DNA of 64,000 nt, from IMG/VR virus record IMGVR_UViG_2872147552_000001; one strand, written 5' to 3'. Below the pieces are notes generated by a model, which did not search any database, had not been told where the DNA came from, and saw only the letters and a program-made list of their open reading frames with translations. Shown piece by piece: positions 3,135 through 43,675 of the stretch (position 1 is its first letter; each line of letters starts with the position of its first letter). This DNA comes from a virus (Duplodnaviria; Heunggongvirae; Uroviricota; Caudoviricetes). A program made the position numbers and the translations under genes.

Positions 3135-3365
3135 ATGTTTGTTCTTATCGCTGGCGTTAACGTGCGCAATGAATATTTTGTTAATCGCATCGCTGGGATC
3201 GCTGGTTACGCTGGGCGCTCAGTCGAGTTTATCGATGAAACAACGCGTAAAATTGATTTATTGAGCGACCAGGAGCGAAAAAAAGCAGACGTGAACGACG
3301 CTGATATATTTTTAATGTTAAAAGCGTTTGTAGAAATGGGATTTAAAATCAGTTTACACAAATAA
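3135..3365 (+). CDS. hypothetical protein (76 aa)
   Basis: Same aaggagcttta RBS context as the previous gene. Confidence 0.45.
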   Translation: MFVLIAGVNVRNEYFVNRIAGIAGYAGRSVEFIDETTRKIDLLSDQERKKADVNDADIFLMLKAFVEMGFKISLHK

Positions 3366-3370
3366 AATCG

Positions 3371-3395
3371 AGCGCCCATAGTGGGCGCTTTTTTC
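3371..3395 (+). terminator. rho-independent terminator
   Basis: agcgcccatagtgggcgct hairpin followed by TTTTTT. Confidence 0.6.
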
Positions 3396-3415
3396 GTTTC
3401 CAATACTCCCACCAT

Positions 3416-3446
3416 AGCGCGCCATCATTGGCGCGTTTTTTATTGT
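3416..3446 (+). terminator. second tandem terminator
   Basis: agcgcgccatcattggcgcg hairpin followed by TTTTTT. Confidence 0.55.
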
Positions 3447-3854
3447 CTTTAACTCACTCCAACAACATAAAAATAAGCGCCAAAATAACGCCATAGACGC
3501 GCTTTTATATCCTTACCAGTACATACCCATTACTTAGCACATTAACGCGCTTAAAATGCGTTATATTGCGCTATAACGTATGGCTAATCATTGGCTTTTA
3601 TTCTTGCTATGTGATCCGCGTTTATTTGTCGGCGCGGATCGGCATTTTGTGTTGTTCTGTATCCGCTCGCGTATTATGTGCGCGTGATTTTTCACATAAT
3701 CACACCACTTAATCACGTATGTGATTACGCTACGAAAGAAATCTGGATGTCTCAGGCGACGAAAGTCATCATAATTTTCCCCGCTCGCCTGTCCGACAAC
3801 CGCTGGTTGGATTCCACCAGCTTCCCGATGTTTTTTTCTACATAAAGGCGAATG

Positions 3855-3970
3855 CAGCCGTTTCCCGAAAAAATCCTGGCCGTTTCCCGTCGGCTCATGA
3901 ATACGTTCCTCGCCGTTTCTGAAAATTTCCCTGCGGCAGCTGGTGGCTATAGAGAAAGGGCCGTTTCTGG
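3855..3970. repeat. cluster of four GCCGTTTC(C/T) direct repeats
   Basis: cagccgtttcccgaa, ggccgtttcccgt, cgccgtttctgaaaa, ggccgtttctgg within 115 bp. Confidence 0.6.
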
Positions 3971-3982
3971 CCCTCTTCTCAG

Positions 3983-4465
3983 TTACACGCCATCAAGGAT
4001 GTGGATGCGGTTGCTTGCGTATACATTCAGCATAAAGTTAGCGCAAAACAGTTTCCATGTATCAACGCCAGCGGTATACGTAATGTTTTTGCATTTAATC
4101 GCATTGTTGGCGATCCGCATCCCCTGCGATACTGCTTCATCGTCGGAAAATTTGAACGACGATTGAGTTTTAATCCAGACAGAAATCTGCGTAGCGAACT
4201 CAATCAGCTTGGACTGGCAGAATCGCCCGGAGCGCACCGGAAAGACGAACGTTCCGAATCCAGAATTTACCACATACGCTTTCTCAAATACCCGCGAGTA
4301 ACGACGATTGCCAATGATGTCGCGTGCAATAATGCATTTTTCTTGTGCTGACAGTTCTACCGTCTCATTGTCGCGCCATGCACCAAGTACTCGTTTTTCA
4401 ATGTCAGAGAACGTTACAGCGATATTGCCATGTGCGGGTGCGTTTACAGTAGCGATAAAATTCAT
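3983..4465 (-). CDS. hypothetical protein (160 aa)
   Basis: ORF with AAGGA RBS; upstream GATAAT -10 and palindromic leader motif. Confidence 0.5.
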   Translation of the reverse strand: MNFIATVNAPAHGNIAVTFSDIEKRVLGAWRDNETVELSAQEKCIIARDIIGNRRYSRVFEKAYVVNSGFGTFVFPVRSGRFCQSKLIEFATQISVWIKTQSSFKFSDDEAVSQGMRIANNAIKCKNITYTAGVDTWKLFCANFMLNVYASNRIHILDGV

Positions 4466-4486
4466 GATTAATTCCTTATCGTAAAT

Positions 4487-4497
4487 AACAAATTGTT
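4487..4497 (-). promoter_or_regulatory. class A palindromic leader motif (AACAAnTTGTT)
   Basis: aacaaattgtt about 22 nt upstream of the start at 4465. Confidence 0.5.
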
Positions 4498-4640
4498 TTC
4501 TTGTTGGTGTTAATTATCGTTGTACGAATAAGGCGTCAAAGTGGAAAGTTGCGGTAGCCGGACGGGAACAGGTGGGTTTGTCGGTTGCCTGGAGGTAAGA
4601 GGTTGGTGTTTTTAGCCTGCGGGAAACAGGATGGTCATTT

Positions 4641-4664
4641 AAGGCCACCAGCATTGGTGGCCTT
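4641..4664 (-). terminator. conserved GGCCACC hairpin at gene 3' end
   Basis: aaggccaccagcattggtggcctt directly after the stop at 4670; one of five related copies. Confidence 0.45.
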
Positions 4665-4669
4665 AATCT

Positions 4670-4951
4670 TTAGTGGAGCAGACCGATGTCGATGGTATCC
4701 CCTGAATCATCCACACGGATCATCAGCATGGCGAAGGCGTTTAGTGGATAACTGGCGTGCCATTCAGGGAAGCGGTCATCTCGCATGAAGTCGGCAATGT
4801 CGTAAACGCATCCCTCAAAGTGGAAGAATCGCGTGCTTACCTGCTCGTCATATTCCACATGATCCATTTCTTGCTGTTCTGTTTCCGGCAAGTCCAGCCA
4901 TGATTCAAGGAATACATTTTGTGCTTTAGGGGTAATGGTGAAATCAGTCAT
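4670..4951 (-). CDS. hypothetical protein (93 aa, acidic)
   Basis: Start moved to the ATG with GAGGA RBS (MTDFTITPK...); ORF track start lies upstream of the promoter motif. Confidence 0.45.
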   Translation of the reverse strand: MTDFTITPKAQNVFLESWLDLPETEQQEMDHVEYDEQVSTRFFHFEGCVYDIADFMRDDRFPEWHASYPLNAFAMLMIRVDDSGDTIDIGLLH

Positions 4952-4970
4952 GAGCATATCCTCACTGCGT

Positions 4971-4984
4971 AAACATGTTGTTTT
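4971..4984 (-). promoter_or_regulatory. class A palindromic leader motif
   Basis: aaacatgttgtttt about 20 nt upstream of the start. Confidence 0.45.
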
Positions 4985-5111
4985 CTTGTTGGTGTAATTA
5001 TCGCAGTGTAGATAAGGCATAAAAGAAGTTAATACAGGCTGAATACACAAGAAAGGTTCTGGAAGTTGATAGCCAGGTTTCAAACTAACCTTCGGTTATT
5101 AAAAGTCATTT

Positions 5112-5135
5112 AAGACCACCAATGCTGGTGGCCTT
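5112..5135 (-). terminator. conserved GGCCACC-type hairpin
   Basis: aagaccaccaatgctggtggcctt. Confidence 0.4.
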
Positions 5136-5140
5136 AATAA

Positions 5141-5284
5141 TTATCGACCGATTACGCTAAGGATCTTTTCCTCAACTGATTTGTTGTTGCGACTAAACTG
5201 CCTTGCGTATCTGATGACAGAAGAGGCGTTTTGCTTTCTGACCATCTCGGCTCTTTCCTTCAGGCGTTTCTTGAAATCGCCCAT
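5141..5284 (-). CDS. possible small basic protein (47 aa), not in ORF track
   Basis: ATG 2 nt after the stop of the upstream gene; MGDFKKRLKERAEMVRKQNASSVIRYARQFSRNNKSVEEKILSVIGR; ends just before the hairpin. Confidence 0.25.
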   Translation of the reverse strand: MGDFKKRLKERAEMVRKQNASSVIRYARQFSRNNKSVEEKILSVIGR

Positions 5285-5286
5285 AT

Positions 5287-5661
5287 TTACCACCAGGCGC
5301 AGAAGGTCAGTCTGTTATTGTGAAAGTCGTGGTTCTTAATCAGATCTTCCACAATCTCTTTCAACTCCCCCACATCATGCCAGTAACCTTCATCGTACTC
5401 CTGACTGCCGAAGAAAAAACCTTCCCGGGTAGGCAAGTACTCTTCGCAATTACTTTCGTTTATGTGCATCAAATGAGCCTTCAGAAAACAAATGTCATTC
5501 ATCGTTAATTCTAAAAGCTCACAATTTTCGACTTCACCTACGTTGCGCTCCATCCACCCAACGAGCGCATTGAACTTACGGAAGTAAGCAACCTGCTTTC
5601 TGGATGCCTCGTTATTCAGATCGTTTTTAGGCTGTGTCTCGATATAGATATCAAGTCCCAT
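5287..5661 (-). CDS. hypothetical protein
   Basis: Start set at ATG with AAGGAAA RBS (MGLDIYIETQ...). Confidence 0.45.
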   Translation of the reverse strand: MGLDIYIETQPKNDLNNEASRKQVAYFRKFNALVGWMERNVGEVENCELLELTMNDICFLKAHLMHINESNCEEYLPTREGFFFGSQEYDEGYWHDVGELKEIVEDLIKNHDFHNNRLTFCAWW

Positions 5662-5718
5662 GATGGTTTCCTTATTAAGTTGCTTCAGTGAAATCATTTT
5701 CACAAATCAGATAAGGCA

Positions 5719-5732
5719 GAAAACAAATTGTT
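5719..5732 (-). promoter_or_regulatory. class A palindromic leader motif
   Basis: gaaaacaaattgtt upstream of the start. Confidence 0.45.
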
Positions 5733-5778
5733 ATCGGGCATAAGAAAATGGCGCGGTTTACGCGCCATTTAAAGAGGA

Positions 5779-6174
5779 TTAAGCGAATACGCTTTCAGGG
5801 ATTAAGGTGTCGGCAGGAATGCCAGAGGTAATGCGCAGGCCGTACTGACCAATCCAGGCAGTGTTGGTATTCAGGTTGGAGGCGAATACGGTGTCAACCA
5901 TATTCATCATTGGTTCAAACACCTCTTCATCAACCTGGCGGAAGTAGTTCTCGATTTTCAGCAGCAGCGGGTCAGTTGCATCGAAAATAGACTGGTATTG
6001 AATCGCGTACTCGCCGCCGGAGGCATCACCTTTACGCACGATCGTACTGGCCTGGACTTCGGCACCAGTTTCGGTGTTGTACGTAACAACGGTGATTTTT
6101 GCCACATTCTTACCTTCGGCGGTTTCAGAGGCATAGTAAACATCAACTGTCAGTTTTTCGCGTTTAACGGTCAT
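5779..6174 (-). CDS. hypothetical protein
   Basis: Start set at MTVKREK ATG with GGAGAG RBS. Confidence 0.45.
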   Translation of the reverse strand: MTVKREKLTVDVYYASETAEGKNVAKITVVTYNTETGAEVQASTIVRKGDASGGEYAIQYQSIFDATDPLLLKIENYFRQVDEEVFEPMMNMVDTVFASNLNTNTAWIGQYGLRITSGIPADTLIPESVFA

Positions 6175-6216
6175 TTCACTCTCCGTAGTGTATTGGTTAT
6201 TTTTATATTCTATGAT

Positions 6217-6233
6217 CGTAAGTATGTACTTAC
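6217..6233 (-). promoter_or_regulatory. class B palindrome (TAAGTA..TACTTA type)
   Basis: cgtaagtatgtacttac about 45 nt upstream of the start. Confidence 0.4.
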
Positions 6234-6300
6234 AATACAAAAAAGCCCCGTAAGGATGGCGGGGCTGTCGTACTGTCGACTAATTACCACTTGCACATTA

Positions 6301-6612
6301 TCAGGCTATTGCCATCACTGATGCTCTCTGAATTTCTTGCTGGGCCACGCGGTTAACTTCCATCAAAGCCAGTTCGAGCTGATGTTCCGGCCACATTCTT
6401 TGAAATGCCATCCAGCCTTTTCCACGCTGGCGACGAACATTCATTACATAACGAGTAAAGGTGTTTTTATCGAAAGACACCGCTGTTTCACGGAACAGAC
6501 GAATAGAGGTTCCATTGGCAACGATGTCCAGCAAAGTTAATTGAGCAACCAGCGCAGGCTTCTCTTTTCTCTTCTGGTCTTTGTCCAGACCAAGAACCAA
6601 TGATTTTTTCAT
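6301..6612 (-). CDS. hypothetical protein (103 aa)
   Basis: Start at ATG with GGAG RBS (MKKSLVLG...). Confidence 0.45.
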   Translation of the reverse strand: MKKSLVLGLDKDQKRKEKPALVAQLTLLDIVANGTSIRLFRETAVSFDKNTFTRYVMNVRRQRGKGWMAFQRMWPEHQLELALMEVNRVAQQEIQRASVMAIA

Positions 6613-6623
6613 CACAACTCCGT

Positions 6624-6637
6624 AAACAACTTGTTTT
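6624..6637 (-). promoter_or_regulatory. class A palindromic leader motif
   Basis: aaacaacttgtttt 12 nt upstream of the start. Confidence 0.45.
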
Positions 6638-6737
6638 CTCAATGGCGTAAATAATACCAGTAAGAAAACGGCTACAAAGCATAATGATCAGGTGCATGAT
6701 CGATATGCAGGTTCTTCCCTGCGGCTACATATTAAGT

Positions 6738-6756
6738 TAAGCCAGCAATGCTGGCT
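6738..6756 (-). terminator. hairpin (variant of GGCCACC family)
   Basis: aagccagcaatgctggctt downstream of the gene ending at 6767. Confidence 0.35.
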
Positions 6757-6766
6757 TTGGTTGGGG

Positions 6767-7096
6767 TTACTCGAATACTTCAAGAAACTCCTGAACGTCC
6801 CAATGCTGGACGAGGTGAAGATAGACCTTAGAAATCACGTCATTTTCGCTATCGCATGTGAAGTAGTACTTCTGGCTGCGGTTGTATGTGTCCACACAAA
6901 ATTCGCTCATATCCATAAAGTCAGCATCTTCACCCATGTCGCAAATCATCAAAGCAGGTGCGTCATCACGAGTCATCAGCTCAAGCACCCACCGCGAATT
7001 GATCAGAGTGGAAGACCAACCTTCTAACTCATAAAACTGATCAAACTCTTTTTGAGTTAATTTCTTGATTTGGTTGATGTCGATATTTGCAAACAT
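6767..7096 (-). CDS. hypothetical protein (109 aa, acidic)
   Basis: Start at ATG with AAGGA RBS (MFANIDINQ...). Confidence 0.45.
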   Translation of the reverse strand: MFANIDINQIKKLTQKEFDQFYELEGWSSTLINSRWVLELMTRDDAPALMICDMGEDADFMDMSEFCVDTYNRSQKYYFTCDSENDVISKVYLHLVQHWDVQEFLEVFE

Positions 7097-7108
7097 AAAG
7101 CAATCCTT

Positions 7109-7122
7109 AAACAACTTGTTTT
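7109..7122 (-). promoter_or_regulatory. class A palindromic leader motif
   Basis: aaacaacttgtttt followed by GATAAT-like -10. Confidence 0.45.
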
Positions 7123-7457
7123 CTTGATGGTGTTATTATCGCAATAACGCACAGGCGAAAAAGGATTTTATTCCGGTGAATGTGGTTTTGGCAGTGAGTT
7201 TTCAGGTTCAGTACCGAGTACACTTTTTACATTATTCTGATTTAGTGGCCGAAGGTGGCTGGTGGGCAGAATAATCATCTCCCCGAAAACCTACTGAAAT
7301 CGATTGTGACCCGTTGGCTGTCTGGCACAATTACGCTGTAGCTGGGCATTCAGAGGGAGTCCAACGGTAAGTTAGTCCGCCTGCACGTGAGCGCCTCTCT
7401 TCTTCCCGCACATTACAGGTGGGTAGCCGCAACTCTCCCTCACGCTATACCGGTACG

Positions 7458-7595
7458 CCGCCGTTCCTGAACCGGCATCGAGCCTTTTCCCGAAATCCAC
7501 ACAGGCAACTCGACCGTTTCCCTGAAAACCTCCAGCCGTTCCCCGAAGGCAACCCAGCCGTTTCTGTAGCGGGATGCAGCTTTTTCCCTGTATGG
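7458..7595. repeat. second cluster of CCGTTTCC-type direct repeats
   Basis: cgccgttcctgaa, cgaccgtttccctgaaaa, cagccgtttccccgaa, cagccgtttctgta; same family as 3855-3970. Confidence 0.6.
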
Positions 7596-7599
7596 ACCG

Positions 7600-8640
7600 A
7601 AGGCTGACCGTAGGGGTGTTACGGGGGATAAAATCAGGAGTTGAATAAATACGAAAAAGGAGGCGACACCCCTCCTTCCCTCCCCACTTATACATACCTG
7701 GCTTCTTCGCTATACATGTTGTGTTTTATTCGTGTTTTATCTGTCTCAACCTCTCTATGGACGTTAACACTCACTCCTTCCAGAACGTTCTATACGGCGA
7801 CTAATTCTGTTGGTGAATTGGGTGTGTTGTTCTCTCTGTCGGTGTATGTGGTTTCGTTCGTTTTGCGGTGGTTCTTCTATGGGGTGTTCTCGTCGTTTTG
7901 GTGATTGTTCTTCTCCGTGTATGGAGTAATGGCAGGTGGGCGATTCCTTTCGTTGTTGTGTTTGAGTTGTTTGTCTGGAGTGTGAAAGGCTTTTGTAGTT
8001 ATTCGTGTATTGGGTAATGGCGTTTCCCGTGATTGTTCTGTTTCGTGTCTTTTGGGATTGAGAGAAGCCTTGCGGTTACAGGCTTCGTTGGGGGTTCAGT
8101 GATTCTGGTGTTTCTTCGCTGTTTGGGTAATGGCGTGTCGTGGGTATCGCGCGTATGAATGTTTTCGGATTGCCTGTGAAAGTTAGGTTGGTTGTCCGGT
8201 AGCCTGGGGAGAAGAGGTGGGTCTTTTCGGTAGCCTGCCATAAAGAGGTTGGTTGTTTTTGGAAATGGCATATGTGTTATTTAGTTGTTTTGTTATGCCT
8301 GAAAATAAGTTGTTTATATGGTTATGTAACGCAACGGGAACGATTTTGAGCGTGTGTTTTTGTTGGTAGTGTGTTGGGTCGTCTGTGGTGAAAATTGGAC
8401 GCTGTGGCGCTGTCTGCTGCGTAGAATTACGGGTATAAGCAGTGATGTGTGAAAACGTCAATTTTTTAGACCAAATAGGGTGAAAGCGTTGATGTTTCGT
8501 TGATCTGTTATTTAGTTGTTTTCTTGTTTGTATAAACAACTATAACCTATTGATATTTAAGGATGTGATTGCGGGTATGGAAGGGGAGTAGTGGCGATCA
8601 ACGGATTCTTATAGAAAAGAATCAAATTGTGACCGCCATT
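7600..8640. other. ORF-poor, GT-skewed noncoding region with degenerate repeats
   Basis: Plus strand strongly G+T rich; recurring gggtaatggcg and ggtagcctg units; only low-complexity ORFs. Confidence 0.5.
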
Positions 8641-8649
8641 ATCAATGTT

Positions 8650-9384
8650 TTACTTAGTTTTGTTTAGCAGAGAGAGAATTTCATCACTAATTTCACTCGC
8701 CTGTTTGATAGCCAATGCAGTTACCTCTTCTATGGTTGGTGACTGTTGATGCTCATGTTTGGTTTCAGTTATGACAATGTGTTCTTCACCTGAATTTGCG
8801 CATAGTGCCGCATTGACTATAAGGTTTGAGTAAGAATTTAGCAGAGCACTGTTGATAAACGCTTTCACGGTATTACTGTCTGCACCAAATACATCTTTTC
8901 TGACCGCTTCAGCCTCACAGCGAACCCCTGCAGCAACATCGTGAAGAACATGTATGGCCTTGGAGCTTGTTTGTTCACAGTACTCAATCATTATTGTCGA
9001 ATTGTTCTGTTCAACAAATGATCTGATGCCTGACGATTCACCCATAGCATCGAAGGCAGCGTGACCCGCACTAGTAGAGATATCTTCGTAGAGTTCTTCA
9101 TCGCTATCTTTTTCTTCAGGTGTCGAGGTGTCTTCATCGTCGTAATAGATATTGCCTTTAATCAGTGTTTTGGATACTTGATATAAACAATAAGAGACGA
9201 GATTTAAGCATTGGATTTTAGCTGTATTGTCCTTTGTCGCCTCGCTCTTCAGTTCTTTCGCTTCTTCAGTAAGGCTGTTGATAAGACTTTGTATTTTTTC
9301 CAACGCGTTAGGTGCACACTCCGCGTTGTCCATAAAGAATTTATAACCAGTTCCAGGGATTTCTAAACTTTTCAACTTTTTCAT
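8650..9384 (-). CDS. hypothetical protein (244 aa)
   Basis: Long ORF, acidic Ser/Glu-rich middle; no family recognised. Confidence 0.5.
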   Translation of the reverse strand: MKKLKSLEIPGTGYKFFMDNAECAPNALEKIQSLINSLTEEAKELKSEATKDNTAKIQCLNLVSYCLYQVSKTLIKGNIYYDDEDTSTPEEKDSDEELYEDISTSAGHAAFDAMGESSGIRSFVEQNNSTIMIEYCEQTSSKAIHVLHDVAAGVRCEAEAVRKDVFGADSNTVKAFINSALLNSYSNLIVNAALCANSGEEHIVITETKHEHQQSPTIEEVTALAIKQASEISDEILSLLNKTK

Positions 9385-41395: not shown

Positions 41396-41482
41396 AATCG
41401 TTTTTTCAGTAGTTATTGGCCGATGCTACGATAACTCATTAGGCATACCTTAATCTGCATTTGCCTGTTTTACTTATCCCAG

Positions 41483-41700
41483 TTATCCACTGGATAGATC
41501 CAAATAAGAGATCCCAAGTAAGATCAAATAGAAGATCCAAAGAGATCCCAGATCGCCTCTAGCCGTTGCGGTTACTGGTCTGAAAGGGTGTTGCCATCCA
41601 CTATGGAGAGCAAAGAAACCTCTGTAGAGAGCTGAATAACCGCTATGAAGAGTAAAACAACCACTCTGGAGAGCTGTATATATCCACTGTAGAGAGTAGA
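41483..41700. promoter_or_regulatory. origin-like unit 1: DnaA box, GATC cluster, iteron array
   Basis: TTATCCAC at 41483; six GATC in 41497-41554; five approx 21-bp-spaced iterons CCACTnTrGAGAG 41596-41700. Confidence 0.6.
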
Positions 41701-41808
41701 GCACATTGTCTTTTATGGATAACTTAATGACTTAATTCTTCATTAACATACTGATATACATAGATATATTTTAAACTCTACTCTTAGTCATGATTCTTAT
41801 GTCCTTAA

Positions 41809-42098
41809 ATATCCACAGAAGAGTAGAGTTACCTGTTCTTGAAATCCTCTGATTTTTATCCACAGGCCCGATCCAGTAATTCAGATCACAAAGAGAACCA
41901 AAGAGACCCATAAAGACCCAATAAGATCCCCGCCCACCTCAAACCGTTGTGCCATCTGCCTTCAGACATGATCGATATCCACTATAGAGAGCGAATAATC
42001 CACTATAGGGAGCAAAGCAACCACTATAGAGAGGAGAAAAACCACTATAGACGGTAGGATAACCGCTGTGATGAGTGCTACTATCCACTGTAATCAGC
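41809..42098. promoter_or_regulatory. origin-like unit 2 (incC-like): DnaA boxes, GATC sites, iterons before repA
   Basis: ATATCCACA 41809, TTATCCACA 41856; GATC sites; six iterons 41976-42098. Confidence 0.65.
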
Positions 42099-42138
42099 AA
42101 AGGCCACCAAAGCCGTCGAATAACAAGAGACATTTGGA

Positions 42139-43194
42139 ATGAGCGAAAACGGCAATAAAAACATAGCGATCGTTGAAGCATTTTCAGAAACAGATAAAAA
42201 GACAGGCGAAGTTGTTACGTTGGTTCCTAACACTAATAACACTGTTCAGCCTGTTGCTTTGATGCGTCTGGGCCTCTTCGTTCCGACGCTGAAATCGACA
42301 TCCAGAGGAAGAAAGGGGCAAATGGTCTCTATGGATGCCTCTGCTGAACTCAAACAGCTGTCTCTGGCAAAAGCCGAAGGGTACGAAGACATAAGGATCT
42401 CTGGCCTTCGGCTTGATATGGATAACGACTTTAAAACGTGGGTGGGAATAATCCACGCGTTTGCCAAACACAAGGTCGTTGGCGATACTGTCACGTTGCC
42501 GTTCGTTGAGTTTGTAAGGCTGTGTGGCATTCCGACCGCCAGGTCATCAGCGAAGTTACGCAAACGCCTGGACAGTTCGCTAAGCCGTATTGCCACAAAT
42601 ACCATCTCGTTCCGTAGTAAAGGCTCTGATGAGTTTTACGTAACGCATCTTGTGCAAACGGCAAAATATAGTGTCAAGCACGATACGGTCGAACTGAAAG
42701 CAGATCCCAAGATTTTCGAACTCTACCAGTTCGACAAAAAGGTTCTTCTGCAACTCCGGGCTATAAACGAACTCTCAAGAAAAGAATCCGCTCAGGCGCT
42801 TTATACTTTTATTGAAAGTTTGCCGCCTGATCCGGCACCAATATCACTAGCCCGTTTACGCGCCAGACTTAATCTGACAAGTCGCACTATTACTCAGAAT
42901 GCGACGGTAAGAAAGGCTATGGAACAGCTGCGAGAGATAGGATATCTCGATTACACGGAAGTTAAGCGCGGAAACTCGGTCTACTTCGTCATCCACTATA
43001 GGCGGCCAAAGTTACGCCAGGCACAAATATCAACAAAAATCGATAATGATGAGACGGAATATAGCCTCCCAGATGAGAATCAAGATGACATTATCGACGT
43101 TGTGCCTGACGAAAAAGAAGGCAAAATGGTCATGTTGAGTAAAGAAGAACTGGCGCTTCTCGAAGAGTTGCGCAAGGCAAAGACTCGCAAATAG
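42139..43194 (+). CDS. repA: replication initiator RepA (P1/RepFIB iteron-binding type)
   Basis: [77 protein letters not shown] recalled as hallmark of P1/RepFIB RepA; iterons on both sides. Confidence 0.85.
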
Positions 43195-43196
43195 CC

Positions 43197-43675
43197 CAAC
43201 CACTGTAGTTAGTAGTAAGGCTCACTATCCACTGTAGTGAGCCTTACTTATATCTGTAATTCGCTATCCACTATAGTGAGTATCGTTATCTGTTGATAAC
43301 CACTGTAGGCAGTAGAATGCAAATACTGAATTAAATGTTAGTGATCACTAACACTGATGAAACAAGGGCTGCGAGGTTAGTGGTCACTGGGTATCTTGGA
43401 AAATTTACTGTCTATAGTGGTTGTTGTCGCCCTCATCTTTGAGCGTATCCACTGTGGCGAGTGGATATCCACTGAAAACAGCAAAGGCTTACTCACCATA
43501 GTGTATACCCGCTGGACATCTCACTCCAATACTCACCATAGTGGTTGTTTGATGCGAATGAAAGGCTGTCTACTCGCTACAGTGGTTAGCAGATATGTAG
43601 GAAGAGAGGACTGCAGACCACAGTGGATAATGAGCTGATACGAATGCGGTGAGCTGGCTACTCACCGCAGTGGTT
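43197..43675. repeat. incA-like iteron array downstream of repA
   Basis: At least ten CCACTGTAG / CTATAGTGG type iterons in both orientations. Confidence 0.65.

Follow-up and report, generated by a model that had tools for sequence, protein, structure and literature searches.

A conserved strand-skewed non-coding tract beside the cargo hotspot of SSU5/pLF82-type phage-plasmids, and its possible role as a Rho-loading insulation zone

Introduction

Why would a phage genome keep most of a kilobase of DNA that carries no gene and whose two strands differ sharply in base composition? The question is raised by a gene-free gap in a 64,000-nt stretch (hereafter the window, always at its full length) of the tailed-phage record IMGVR_UViG_2872147552_000001 from IMG/VR, where a preliminary description had noticed, at 7600-8640, a region poor in open reading frames (ORFs) with an extreme excess of G and T on the plus strand. 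A query of 1.6 kb around this finding matched 371 PLSDB plasmids by megablast and 838 by sensitive blastn, and also matched the phages Cyrano (pLF82, 97.4% identity), CMS-2020a, PhiR41_1 and, more distantly, Salmonella phage SSU5; these plasmid and phage matches identify the window as an SSU5/pLF82 (Cyrano)-type phage-plasmid. Cyrano is numbered along the opposite strand, with window position x at about Cyrano 102,922 - x. The minus strand of the window, used by nearly all genes from 4.6 kb onward, is called the sense strand below.

Phage-plasmids of this type occur commonly among clinical E. coli, Klebsiella, Enterobacter and Salmonella, the 838 PLSDB records with the region among them, and carry resistance and defence cargo beside the tract described here. 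In the literature on SSU5, pHCM2, pLF82, replication origins and R-loops, we found no prior description of this tract.

Composition and conservation of the tract

The most skewed 800 nt of the 64 kb are positions 7805-8604, where plus-strand G+T reaches 0.71 against a window mean of 0.503 (standard deviation 0.030) and 0.57 in the runner-up 800-nt stretch, bearing out the extreme skew first reported. Over 7800-8600 the plus strand is composed of A 0.172, C 0.120, G 0.316 and T 0.392 (GC skew +0.45, AT skew -0.39), and the GC content of the tract is 0.44-0.48. The left edge of the skew is sharp at about 7790 and the right edge lies at about 8600, at a conserved hairpin; the span originally given therefore began some 190 nt too far to the left, 7600-7790 being unskewed. 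Thus delimited (7790-8600, minus strand, length ~0.85 kb), the tract is non-coding and unstructured, and its sense strand is A+C-rich and G-poor, a bias opposite to that of the rest of the genome. In 1-kb bins of Cyrano, the sense strand has more G than C almost throughout, and where a bin does turn negative it reaches -40 at most, whereas the tract bin stands at -135; the skew is therefore not a by-product of the genome-wide mutational or coding trend.

At the level of sense RNA, C/G is at least 2.5 in 78-nt segments over 7796-8638, the largest C>G bubble of sense RNA in the 64 kb (median 2.5 in the tract against 0.91 window-wide, with a window 99th percentile of 2.58). Gene ends and intergenic gaps are also where the other large C>G bubbles are found, at 4490-4648 on the minus strand and at 3388-3557 on the plus strand, the latter being the largest for plus-strand RNA and directly past the end of the plus-strand genes.

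The skew occurs at the same position in every relative examined, in E. coli, Salmonella, Citrobacter, Enterobacter, Cronobacter, Klebsiella and IMG/VR contigs, including a distant Enterobacter plasmid whose flanking protein is 34% identical, and is therefore not a chance property of one sequence. Two anchors, the hairpin-loop motif TTTCTATAAG and the conserved block CGTAnnnAnTCAA, bracket the tract. Between them, length was 947-1069 nt and sense A+C 0.62-0.67 in 12 lineages, while identity to the window over the anchored interval was 0.50-0.51 in the two most distant, L016 and L071, against 0.44 for shuffled sequence. In the lineage L071-L077 the skew is present and the main repeats are absent. 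Composition and length are conserved at nearly free sequence, a pattern that, judged from these comparisons, is a case of selection on base composition and length.

G<->T changes form the commonest substitution class; corrected for base frequencies, the substitutions follow the pattern of a composition at equilibrium. In a set of 19 close E. coli copies, nucleotide diversity is 0.024-0.040 in the tract, and 0.043-0.084 at four-fold sites and 0.003-0.016 at first and second codon positions of the adjacent genes; these noisy estimates suggest weak to moderate constraint per site. Rare variants are balanced, with 27 changes from G/T to A/C and 27 in the reverse direction, a result that does not separate mutation bias from selection. 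Identity between lineage L006 and the window is 93% over 4992-7124 (the left flank), drops to about 68% over 7780-8170 and is back at 89% over 8170-8650. This mosaic places recombination breakpoints at a conserved promoter unit (~7124) and at a group of 31-nt units (~8170), and the central module of the tract has been exchanged by recombination.

Absence of coding and folding signals

In pLF82, PGAP calls nothing between window positions ~7097 and ~8650, a gap of ~1.5 kb without annotated gene that is the largest gene-free gap within the 17.6-kb stretch inspected. The authors of the Cyrano annotation placed two hypothetical ORFs there, CYRAN_103 and CYRAN_104, which are not kept across the relatives compared. 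Minus-strand ORFs of 90 and 118 amino acids (aa) exist in the tract and lack a coding signature: mismatches are flat across codon phases in five pairwise comparisons of relatives (chi-square p 0.13-0.98), indels of 1, 2, 5, 11, 12 and 23 nt break the frame, and ATG is rarer than composition predicts (z about -1 to -2.4). A protein-coding gene is ruled out by the flat phases, the frame-breaking indels, the unconserved ORFs and the absence of a PGAP call. The tract is non-coding, and its first characterization as ORF-poor was right in substance. The preliminary description had named a conserved coding gene, or absence from relatives, as grounds for giving up its view; we found no such gene, and the relatives retain the region.

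That description had also proposed an analysis of RNA folding and covariance; folding and Rfam searches gave no support to a structured RNA. Relative to shuffled sequence, no excess folding energy or conserved fold was found on either strand of the tract: the sense strand folds at -136 kcal/mol over 826 nt (z = -2, mostly owed to the hairpins at its ends), and the plus strand folds more poorly than its shuffles (z = +1.3). Rfam, searched at gathering and at permissive thresholds, returned no family in the tract, the best sub-threshold match (E 0.45) lying outside it. A structured non-coding RNA (ncRNA) family was rejected on these grounds. The suggestion of a decayed repeat array fared no better: the repeats are few and dispersed (three to six units of ~29 nt and three of 31 nt) and one lineage is skewed without them. 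A tandem or CRISPR-like array was likewise rejected, as Tandem Repeats Finder reports only a weak 30-nt array and the spacing of the repeats is irregular, at 41-142 nt.

Expression in Cyrano

Misson et al. (PMC9928086) re-analysed stranded LF82 RNA-seq data, comprising 10 samples from LB culture and macrophages in five conditions. Expression is given as log2(fpkm+5), where fpkm denotes fragments per kilobase per million, so that the floor is 2.32; the counts are gene-level and are taken, by assumption, to be strand-specific. CYRAN_102 (window 8650-9384), directly upstream of the tract, ranges from 5.6 to 9.2, and CYRAN_103, which reports sense RNA over 8183-8539, from 2.3 to 4.3 across all 10 samples; CYRAN_104 (7291-7695) lies at 2.6-4.7 and CYRAN_105, downstream, shows an independent rise to 7.8 (PMC9928086). 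In the macrophage samples, sense RNA of the tract stays at the floor while neighbouring early genes go up 10-40-fold (PMC9928086). By these published gene-level counts, sense RNA over 8183-8539 is 11- to 120-fold below CYRAN_102, a drop that RNA decay could equally cause. On these counts, transcription of the sense strand appears not to run through the tract in Cyrano, and its sense RNA does not build up in the sampled conditions.

A possible Rho-loading insulation zone

We tentatively read the tract as an unusually long zone of Rho-dependent termination that insulates the early genes from the cargo hotspot. The tract would act through its composition: it combines strong skew with the lack of a coding signal and of a fold, it has kept its composition and length, and it sits at the boundary of the cargo. 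Rho would most likely be the agent and insulation the selected function.

Because its sense RNA is A+C-rich, with few G and U, it cannot fold, and because it is poor in start codons (AUG, GUG, UUG) and Shine-Dalgarno sequences it goes untranslated. Rho loads preferentially on unstructured, untranslated RNA in which C is well above G, and a Rho utilization (rut) site needs only ~80-100 nt. RNA of C>G and G-poor composition over at least ~80 nt, as looked for in a rut site, is found over 7796-8638, and the folds, indels, codon phases and ATG depletion mark it as unstructured and untranslated. Rho is suggested since this is the largest C>G bubble, since it follows expressed cargo that lacks an intrinsic terminator, and since it coincides with the collapse of sense RNA; between the CYRAN_102 stop codon and the tract we found no canonical intrinsic terminator, only a stem-loop without a U-run.

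In such a scheme, a transcript entering or starting in the tract would be A+C-rich, with C far above G for ~800 nt, and would load Rho. The stem-loop at the junction would shield the 3' end of the upstream cargo mRNA, and a hairpin terminator at the far end (7680-7654) would serve as a back-stop. The tract would thereby halt transcription from cargo ('moron') genes expressed in the lysogen and from a weak internal promoter, and the repressor-controlled early genes downstream would be spared read-through.

Among known elements, the tract would most resemble a rut or Rho-termination region. With lambda tR1 (rutA/rutB) and with the Rho silencing of horizontally acquired DNA it shares an untranslated, unstructured, C-rich and G-poor RNA, a position right after a stop codon, an upstream stem-loop without a U-run and, judged from gene-level counts, an apparent loss of the transcript downstream. 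It differs in being about ten times longer than a rut site, in its conserved length, and in carrying repeats and regulatory sites, namely an operator and a promoter-like site; the part of Rho would here be assigned by analogy.

Several observations weigh against this reading. The 800 nt of conserved length far exceed what termination needs, and the conserved GCCATTAC units, the 31-nt units, the operator palindrome and the promoter-like site would be superfluous in a simple terminator. Other expressed morons of the genome end in ordinary GC-rich hairpins, the drop in RNA-seq signal could equally be RNA decay, and diversity in the tract is, in a noisy comparison, about half that of adjacent four-fold sites. 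It is the excess of conserved length, the unexplained motifs, the hairpin-ended morons and the indirect link to Rho that keep our confidence in the insulation zone low. If true, it would explain how these elements accept arbitrary expressed cargo without activation of lytic genes, and a terminator specified by its composition instead of its sequence would be a design principle that could be carried over to other settings.

A lytic-phase RNA and the operator regulon

In a rather unlikely alternative, the tract would encode an unstructured ncRNA of the lytic phase, ~0.77-0.85 kb long, running from a conserved internal sense promoter-like site or an operator unit to the 7680-7654 hairpin. Such an RNA would act as a platform or sponge, with Rho, the FljA-family regulator of the element with its Hfq-like region, Hfq, S1 or G/U-rich host small RNAs such as GcvB as candidate partners. 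The preliminary description had raised a long ncRNA, and part of that proposal stands, since the non-coding tract bears, on its minus strand, a promoter-like site that is conserved and a hairpin resembling a terminator. Against it, there is no conserved fold and sense RNA is at the floor in all five conditions, macrophage samples included.

The presumed start of this RNA would lie in one of two elements. The first is an early-promoter/operator unit at 8509-8545 (minus strand; CAAGAAAACAAC...); other copies of this unit stand before at least nine sense genes, but the one in the tract lacks a ribosome-binding site, a start codon and an ORF behind it. Its operator half is degenerate in the window and a perfect AAACAAcTTGTTT palindrome in L071. 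In sense order, two ATCAACG repeats separate it from the second element, a conserved sigma-70-like site, TTGACG-N18-TATACC (8432-8461, minus strand). The -35/-10-like pattern TTGACR-N18-TAYACC is kept even in the most distant lineages, which favours a transcript, but the -10 lacks its critical final T in most of them; the variants are TATACT in L006, TTGACA-N18-TACACC in L071 and TTGATC...CTTATACC in L016. At the other end, the sense strand forms a terminator-like hairpin and U-run (7680-7654), followed by the conserved block CGTATTTATTCAA (7653-7641), the two together spanning 7641-7680; Klebsiella lineages share the strong hairpin of the window, and Salmonella-type lineages have a weaker one.

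The conserved length and the dispersed repeats, all in one orientation, also speak for an RNA, and silence in the lysogen is compatible with repressor control. The repeats are absent in one lineage, however, and an untranslated C-rich RNA would itself be liable to truncation by Rho.

A regulator that could act on such an RNA is encoded 6.5 kb away. The 13-nt palindrome AAACAAnTTGTTT has 15 sites in the window (4486-59903) against 0.5 expected, one or two of them inside the tract; examples lie at 6624, 7109, 9743, 9794, 13732, 22545, 23274 and 45219. In about nine aligned sites it is found at roughly +5 to +20 from a GATAAT-type -10, with a tGCCTTTT box near -30, upstream of sense early genes, a promoter layout that recalls the MotA-type middle promoters of T4. 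The sites look like a dispersed-operator regulon. Within the tract, a repressor operator palindrome AAATAAGTTGTTT (8303-8315) with an adjacent half-site occupies 8277-8316 and is perfect in relatives. The 200-aa protein encoded at 1013-1615 on the plus strand belongs to the FljA family (PF03614, 'Repressor of phase-1 flagellin', E 2.5e-84), is labelled a transcriptional repressor in PHROGs, and has a weak, sub-threshold match to Hfq (E 0.001; 19.1 bits, the curated cutoff being 27). In Salmonella, FljA has two targets, the DNA and the mRNA leader of fliC. The FljA-family protein may be the regulator that binds the AAACAAnTTGTTT operators. The arrangement is like that of the P1 C1 operators, which are also scattered over early promoters; it differs in the operator's own sequence and in a regulator probably of another family (FljA, PF03614). 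The P1 analogy would account for the embedded operators and not for the skew.

Compared with known sponge RNAs (CrcZ/CrcY of Pseudomonas for Hfq, CsrB/RsmZ for CsrA, and the prophage AgvB against GcvB), the RNA of the tract would likewise be C/A-rich and non-coding, with several motif copies in the same orientation, a location in a phage and a gene for an FljA-family, Hfq-like regulator nearby. Unlike them, it shows no GGA enrichment, is silent in the lysogen, is two to ten times longer and has lost its motifs in one lineage, and no Hfq-type terminator tail is evident in the tract. Specific partners were tried and set aside. A CsrA/RsmA sponge was rejected because GGA is not enriched (z 0.3-1.2 in the well-delimited cores of most lineages) and expression of the tract in the lysogen stays at the floor. 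AAC is enriched in the tract of the window only and not in relatives. A 13-nt complement at 7950-7970 to what we take to be the GcvB seed is not conserved in relatives, and this candidate was dropped. An RfaH ops/JUMPStart leader (GGCGGTAGnnTG on the non-template strand) was also rejected: CGGTAGCCTG fits it only with two mismatches, and matches of that quality are common (53 against 35 expected) and all on the antisense strand.

A broader formulation, which we consider unlikely, is that the tract is a platform of unstructured nucleic acid whose function is set by composition and length only. It could be an A/C-rich RNA of the lytic phase that sequesters or redirects Rho or the FljA/Hfq-like regulator in a lysis-lysogeny switch, or a zone in which T4-like lytic replication, controlled by UvsW, is primed by an untranslated transcript or a displaced strand. 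Were a lytic RNA or an origin confirmed, no cis element or RNA of the lytic programme would have been described before it in the SSU5/pLF82-type family. Either way, as insulator or as lytic element, the tract would offer a clean case of selection on composition and length at near-free sequence.

A role of the DNA itself

It is doubtful that the tract works as DNA whose plus strand is often single-stranded, be it in a zone of strand displacement or recombinase loading or at a lytic origin that uses transcription or an R-loop for priming. Here the G+T excess would be the footprint of deamination (C to T and A to G) or would be selected for unstructured single-stranded DNA. DNA that is exposed as a single strand is expected to gain such an excess of G+T, and the mitochondrial heavy strand is an example. 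The sharp left edge of the tract would fit this role, as would the loss of the tract in the plasmid-only pMT1 and the position in the largest gene-free gap inspected, a 1.5-kb interval crowded, origin-like, with direct repeats of three classes and with GTTGAY sites, several of them inverted. Genes of T4-type replication and recombination are also present in the phage (UvsW, UvsY, a gp32-like single-stranded DNA-binding protein, a RecA-type, UvsX-like recombinase and RNase H).

The mutational evidence points both ways. Rare variants are at compositional equilibrium, and A-to-G changes far exceed T-to-C per site (0.108 against 0.016), but C-to-T and G-to-A are about equal (0.074 against 0.067, small counts), contrary to plus-strand cytosine deamination. 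No conserved plus-strand promoter was found at the left edge and no AT-rich unwinding element in the tract, given its GC content. With approximate nearest-neighbour parameters, hybrid-minus-duplex energy is unexceptional, at z +1 to +2 for the G/U-rich RNA and about -1.2, mildly favourable, for the A/C-rich RNA.

The tract is similar to the transcription- or R-loop-primed origins of T4 (oriF/oriG with UvsW), ColE1 (RNA II) and herpesvirus oriLyt (with a GC-skewed long ncRNA) in being non-coding, skewed and near repeats, and the phage shares the T4-type genes listed above. It differs in that we found no origin promoter or unwinding element, and in that its G-rich strand is also U-rich, so that the hybrid is not favoured. 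An R-loop-primed origin of the T4 or ColE1 kind is not supported: no conserved plus-strand promoter was found, and the approximate hybrid energy is ordinary. An iteron origin finds direct repeats in the gap (CCKTTYCC, five to six copies ~22 nt apart, and GTAATGGC, three to six copies) and neither an AT-rich element nor an adjacent initiator gene. The plasmid origin was rejected here, as the RepA iterons are unrelated repeats 33 kb away. The secondary origin or nick/packaging region first suggested is a candidate at best: direct repeats in the gap would suit an origin, and the different RepA iterons, the missing AT-rich element, the missing plus-strand promoter and the ordinary hybrid energy stand against it. 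P1-like packaging (pac) hexamers (TGATCA/G) amount to only two or three GTTGATC sites, 13 kb from the terminase genes.

Least probable is a neutral spacer or relic in which the short motifs alone are functional and the skewed composition arose by accident in the past or through a mutational peculiarity of the place: sequence turnover near saturation between lineages, diversity that differs from that of four-fold sites by no more than about twofold and the swap of the central module in L006 would suit it, but a useless kilobase should erode in a size-limited phage genome, yet length and A+C are held in 12 of 12 lineages, and the skew opposes the genome-wide trend.

Hairpins and repeats around the tract

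The junction hairpin (8593-8637, minus strand) has a conserved outer stem, GGCGGUCA/UGAUCGCC, and an inner stem that varies with compensation between lineages; no U-tract follows it. Its loop-region motif TTTCTATAAGA (8607-8617), together with the following GTTGA, is invariant in 17 diverse sequences. In the IMG/VR relative L062 (~3880-3907) the upstream arm of the hairpin is swapped for unrelated sequence up to TTTCTATAAG, a local replacement by which the motif is more conserved than the hairpin. Site-specific recombination at TTTCTATAAGA was rejected, there being no second copy in the window and the L062 variant being a replacement of one arm.

The recurring units noted at the outset are present: GTAATGG three times (7926, 8014, 8127), GGTAGCCTG twice (8198, 8229) and TTAGTTGTTTT twice (8281, 8512). 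Three dispersed units of ~29 nt lie on the minus strand at 7905-7933, 7993-8021 and 8106-8134 (sense GCCATTACyCmATAcrCGGAGAAGAAC, GCCATTAC...CGGAGAAGAAC); relatives have four to six, all in one orientation and spaced 41-142 nt apart. Three tandem 31-nt units (sense ACCnACCTCTT..CAGGCTACCG) occupy 8166-8258 on the minus strand and recur in the window solely at 4545-4635. The related GT-rich stretch reported at 4530-4630 (G+T 0.64, GC skew 0.50) is indeed related through these units (blastn E 1e-5 to 2e-8). This second, short G+T-rich locus (4545-4635, minus strand) holds its three units with a hairpin (4639-4666) on one side and, on the other, the promoter of the gene at 3983-4465, and forms the third-largest C>G bubble of sense RNA.

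To the left of the tract, in unskewed sequence, a direct repeat that reads CCKTTYCC in the plus strand and GGGAAACGG in sense occurs five to six times, mostly ~22 nt apart, at 7455-7590 on the minus strand, and a second cluster of CCGTTTC-type repeats lies at 3858-3967. The GGGAAACGG repeats and the 31-nt units occur together elsewhere only around the gene at 3983-4465. Both classes flank this 160-aa gene (phrog_1641, unknown function) with a spacing of ~600 nt, as in the gap. Paralogy of the tract with that locus was rejected, since the repeats alone match.

A Chi octamer, GCTGGTGG, at 7258-7265 on the plus strand is conserved in most relatives. The whole window has 10 copies of GCTGGTGG on the plus strand and six on the minus strand, where chance would give about one per strand. 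A hairpin with a 12-bp stem, TTAAGGCCACCAGCATTGGTGGyCTTAA, has two copies (4639-4666 and 5110-5137) at gene ends, each with Chi inside its stem. Terminator-like hairpins number 13 in 3300-7200 against 3.7 expected, and are dense at 3370-3700, where plus- and minus-strand transcription units end convergently.

Genomic setting

Synteny with relatives stops at ~8650, and a variable cargo and defence hotspot lies to the right. Between 8650 and ~18000 (and in loci L006-L013) its content differs between relatives: a coiled-coil protein, methionyl-tRNA synthetase, a MinD/ApbC-like ATPase and an S24 peptidase, as well as DUF262 and type I restriction-modification genes, a GIY-YIG nuclease, an Ivy lysozyme inhibitor and insertion sequence (IS) elements.

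In Yersinia pestis pMT1 (L018, 37884-38751), the two leftmost early genes are kept and an IS1541 copy replaces the rest, skewed tract included; as pMT1 is a plasmid only, the tract is dispensable for plasmid maintenance. Large non-phage IncFIB/IncHI1B plasmids of Klebsiella (L003 and L004; 170-214 kb) carry an IS-truncated right half of the tract (5717-6641). There, the segment corresponding to 8197-8658 is a passenger with DUF262/restriction-modification cargo captured from a Klebsiella phage-plasmid, and therefore permits no functional inference.

The RepA iterons (ATCCACTATAGAGAG-type, 21-bp period) lie at 41480-42100 and 43190-43550, on either side of repA (42139-43194), in a layout like that of P1 oriR/incA. 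Three tRNA genes, annotated in Cyrano as Asn, Thr and Ser, stand in a row at 63353-63596 on the minus strand.

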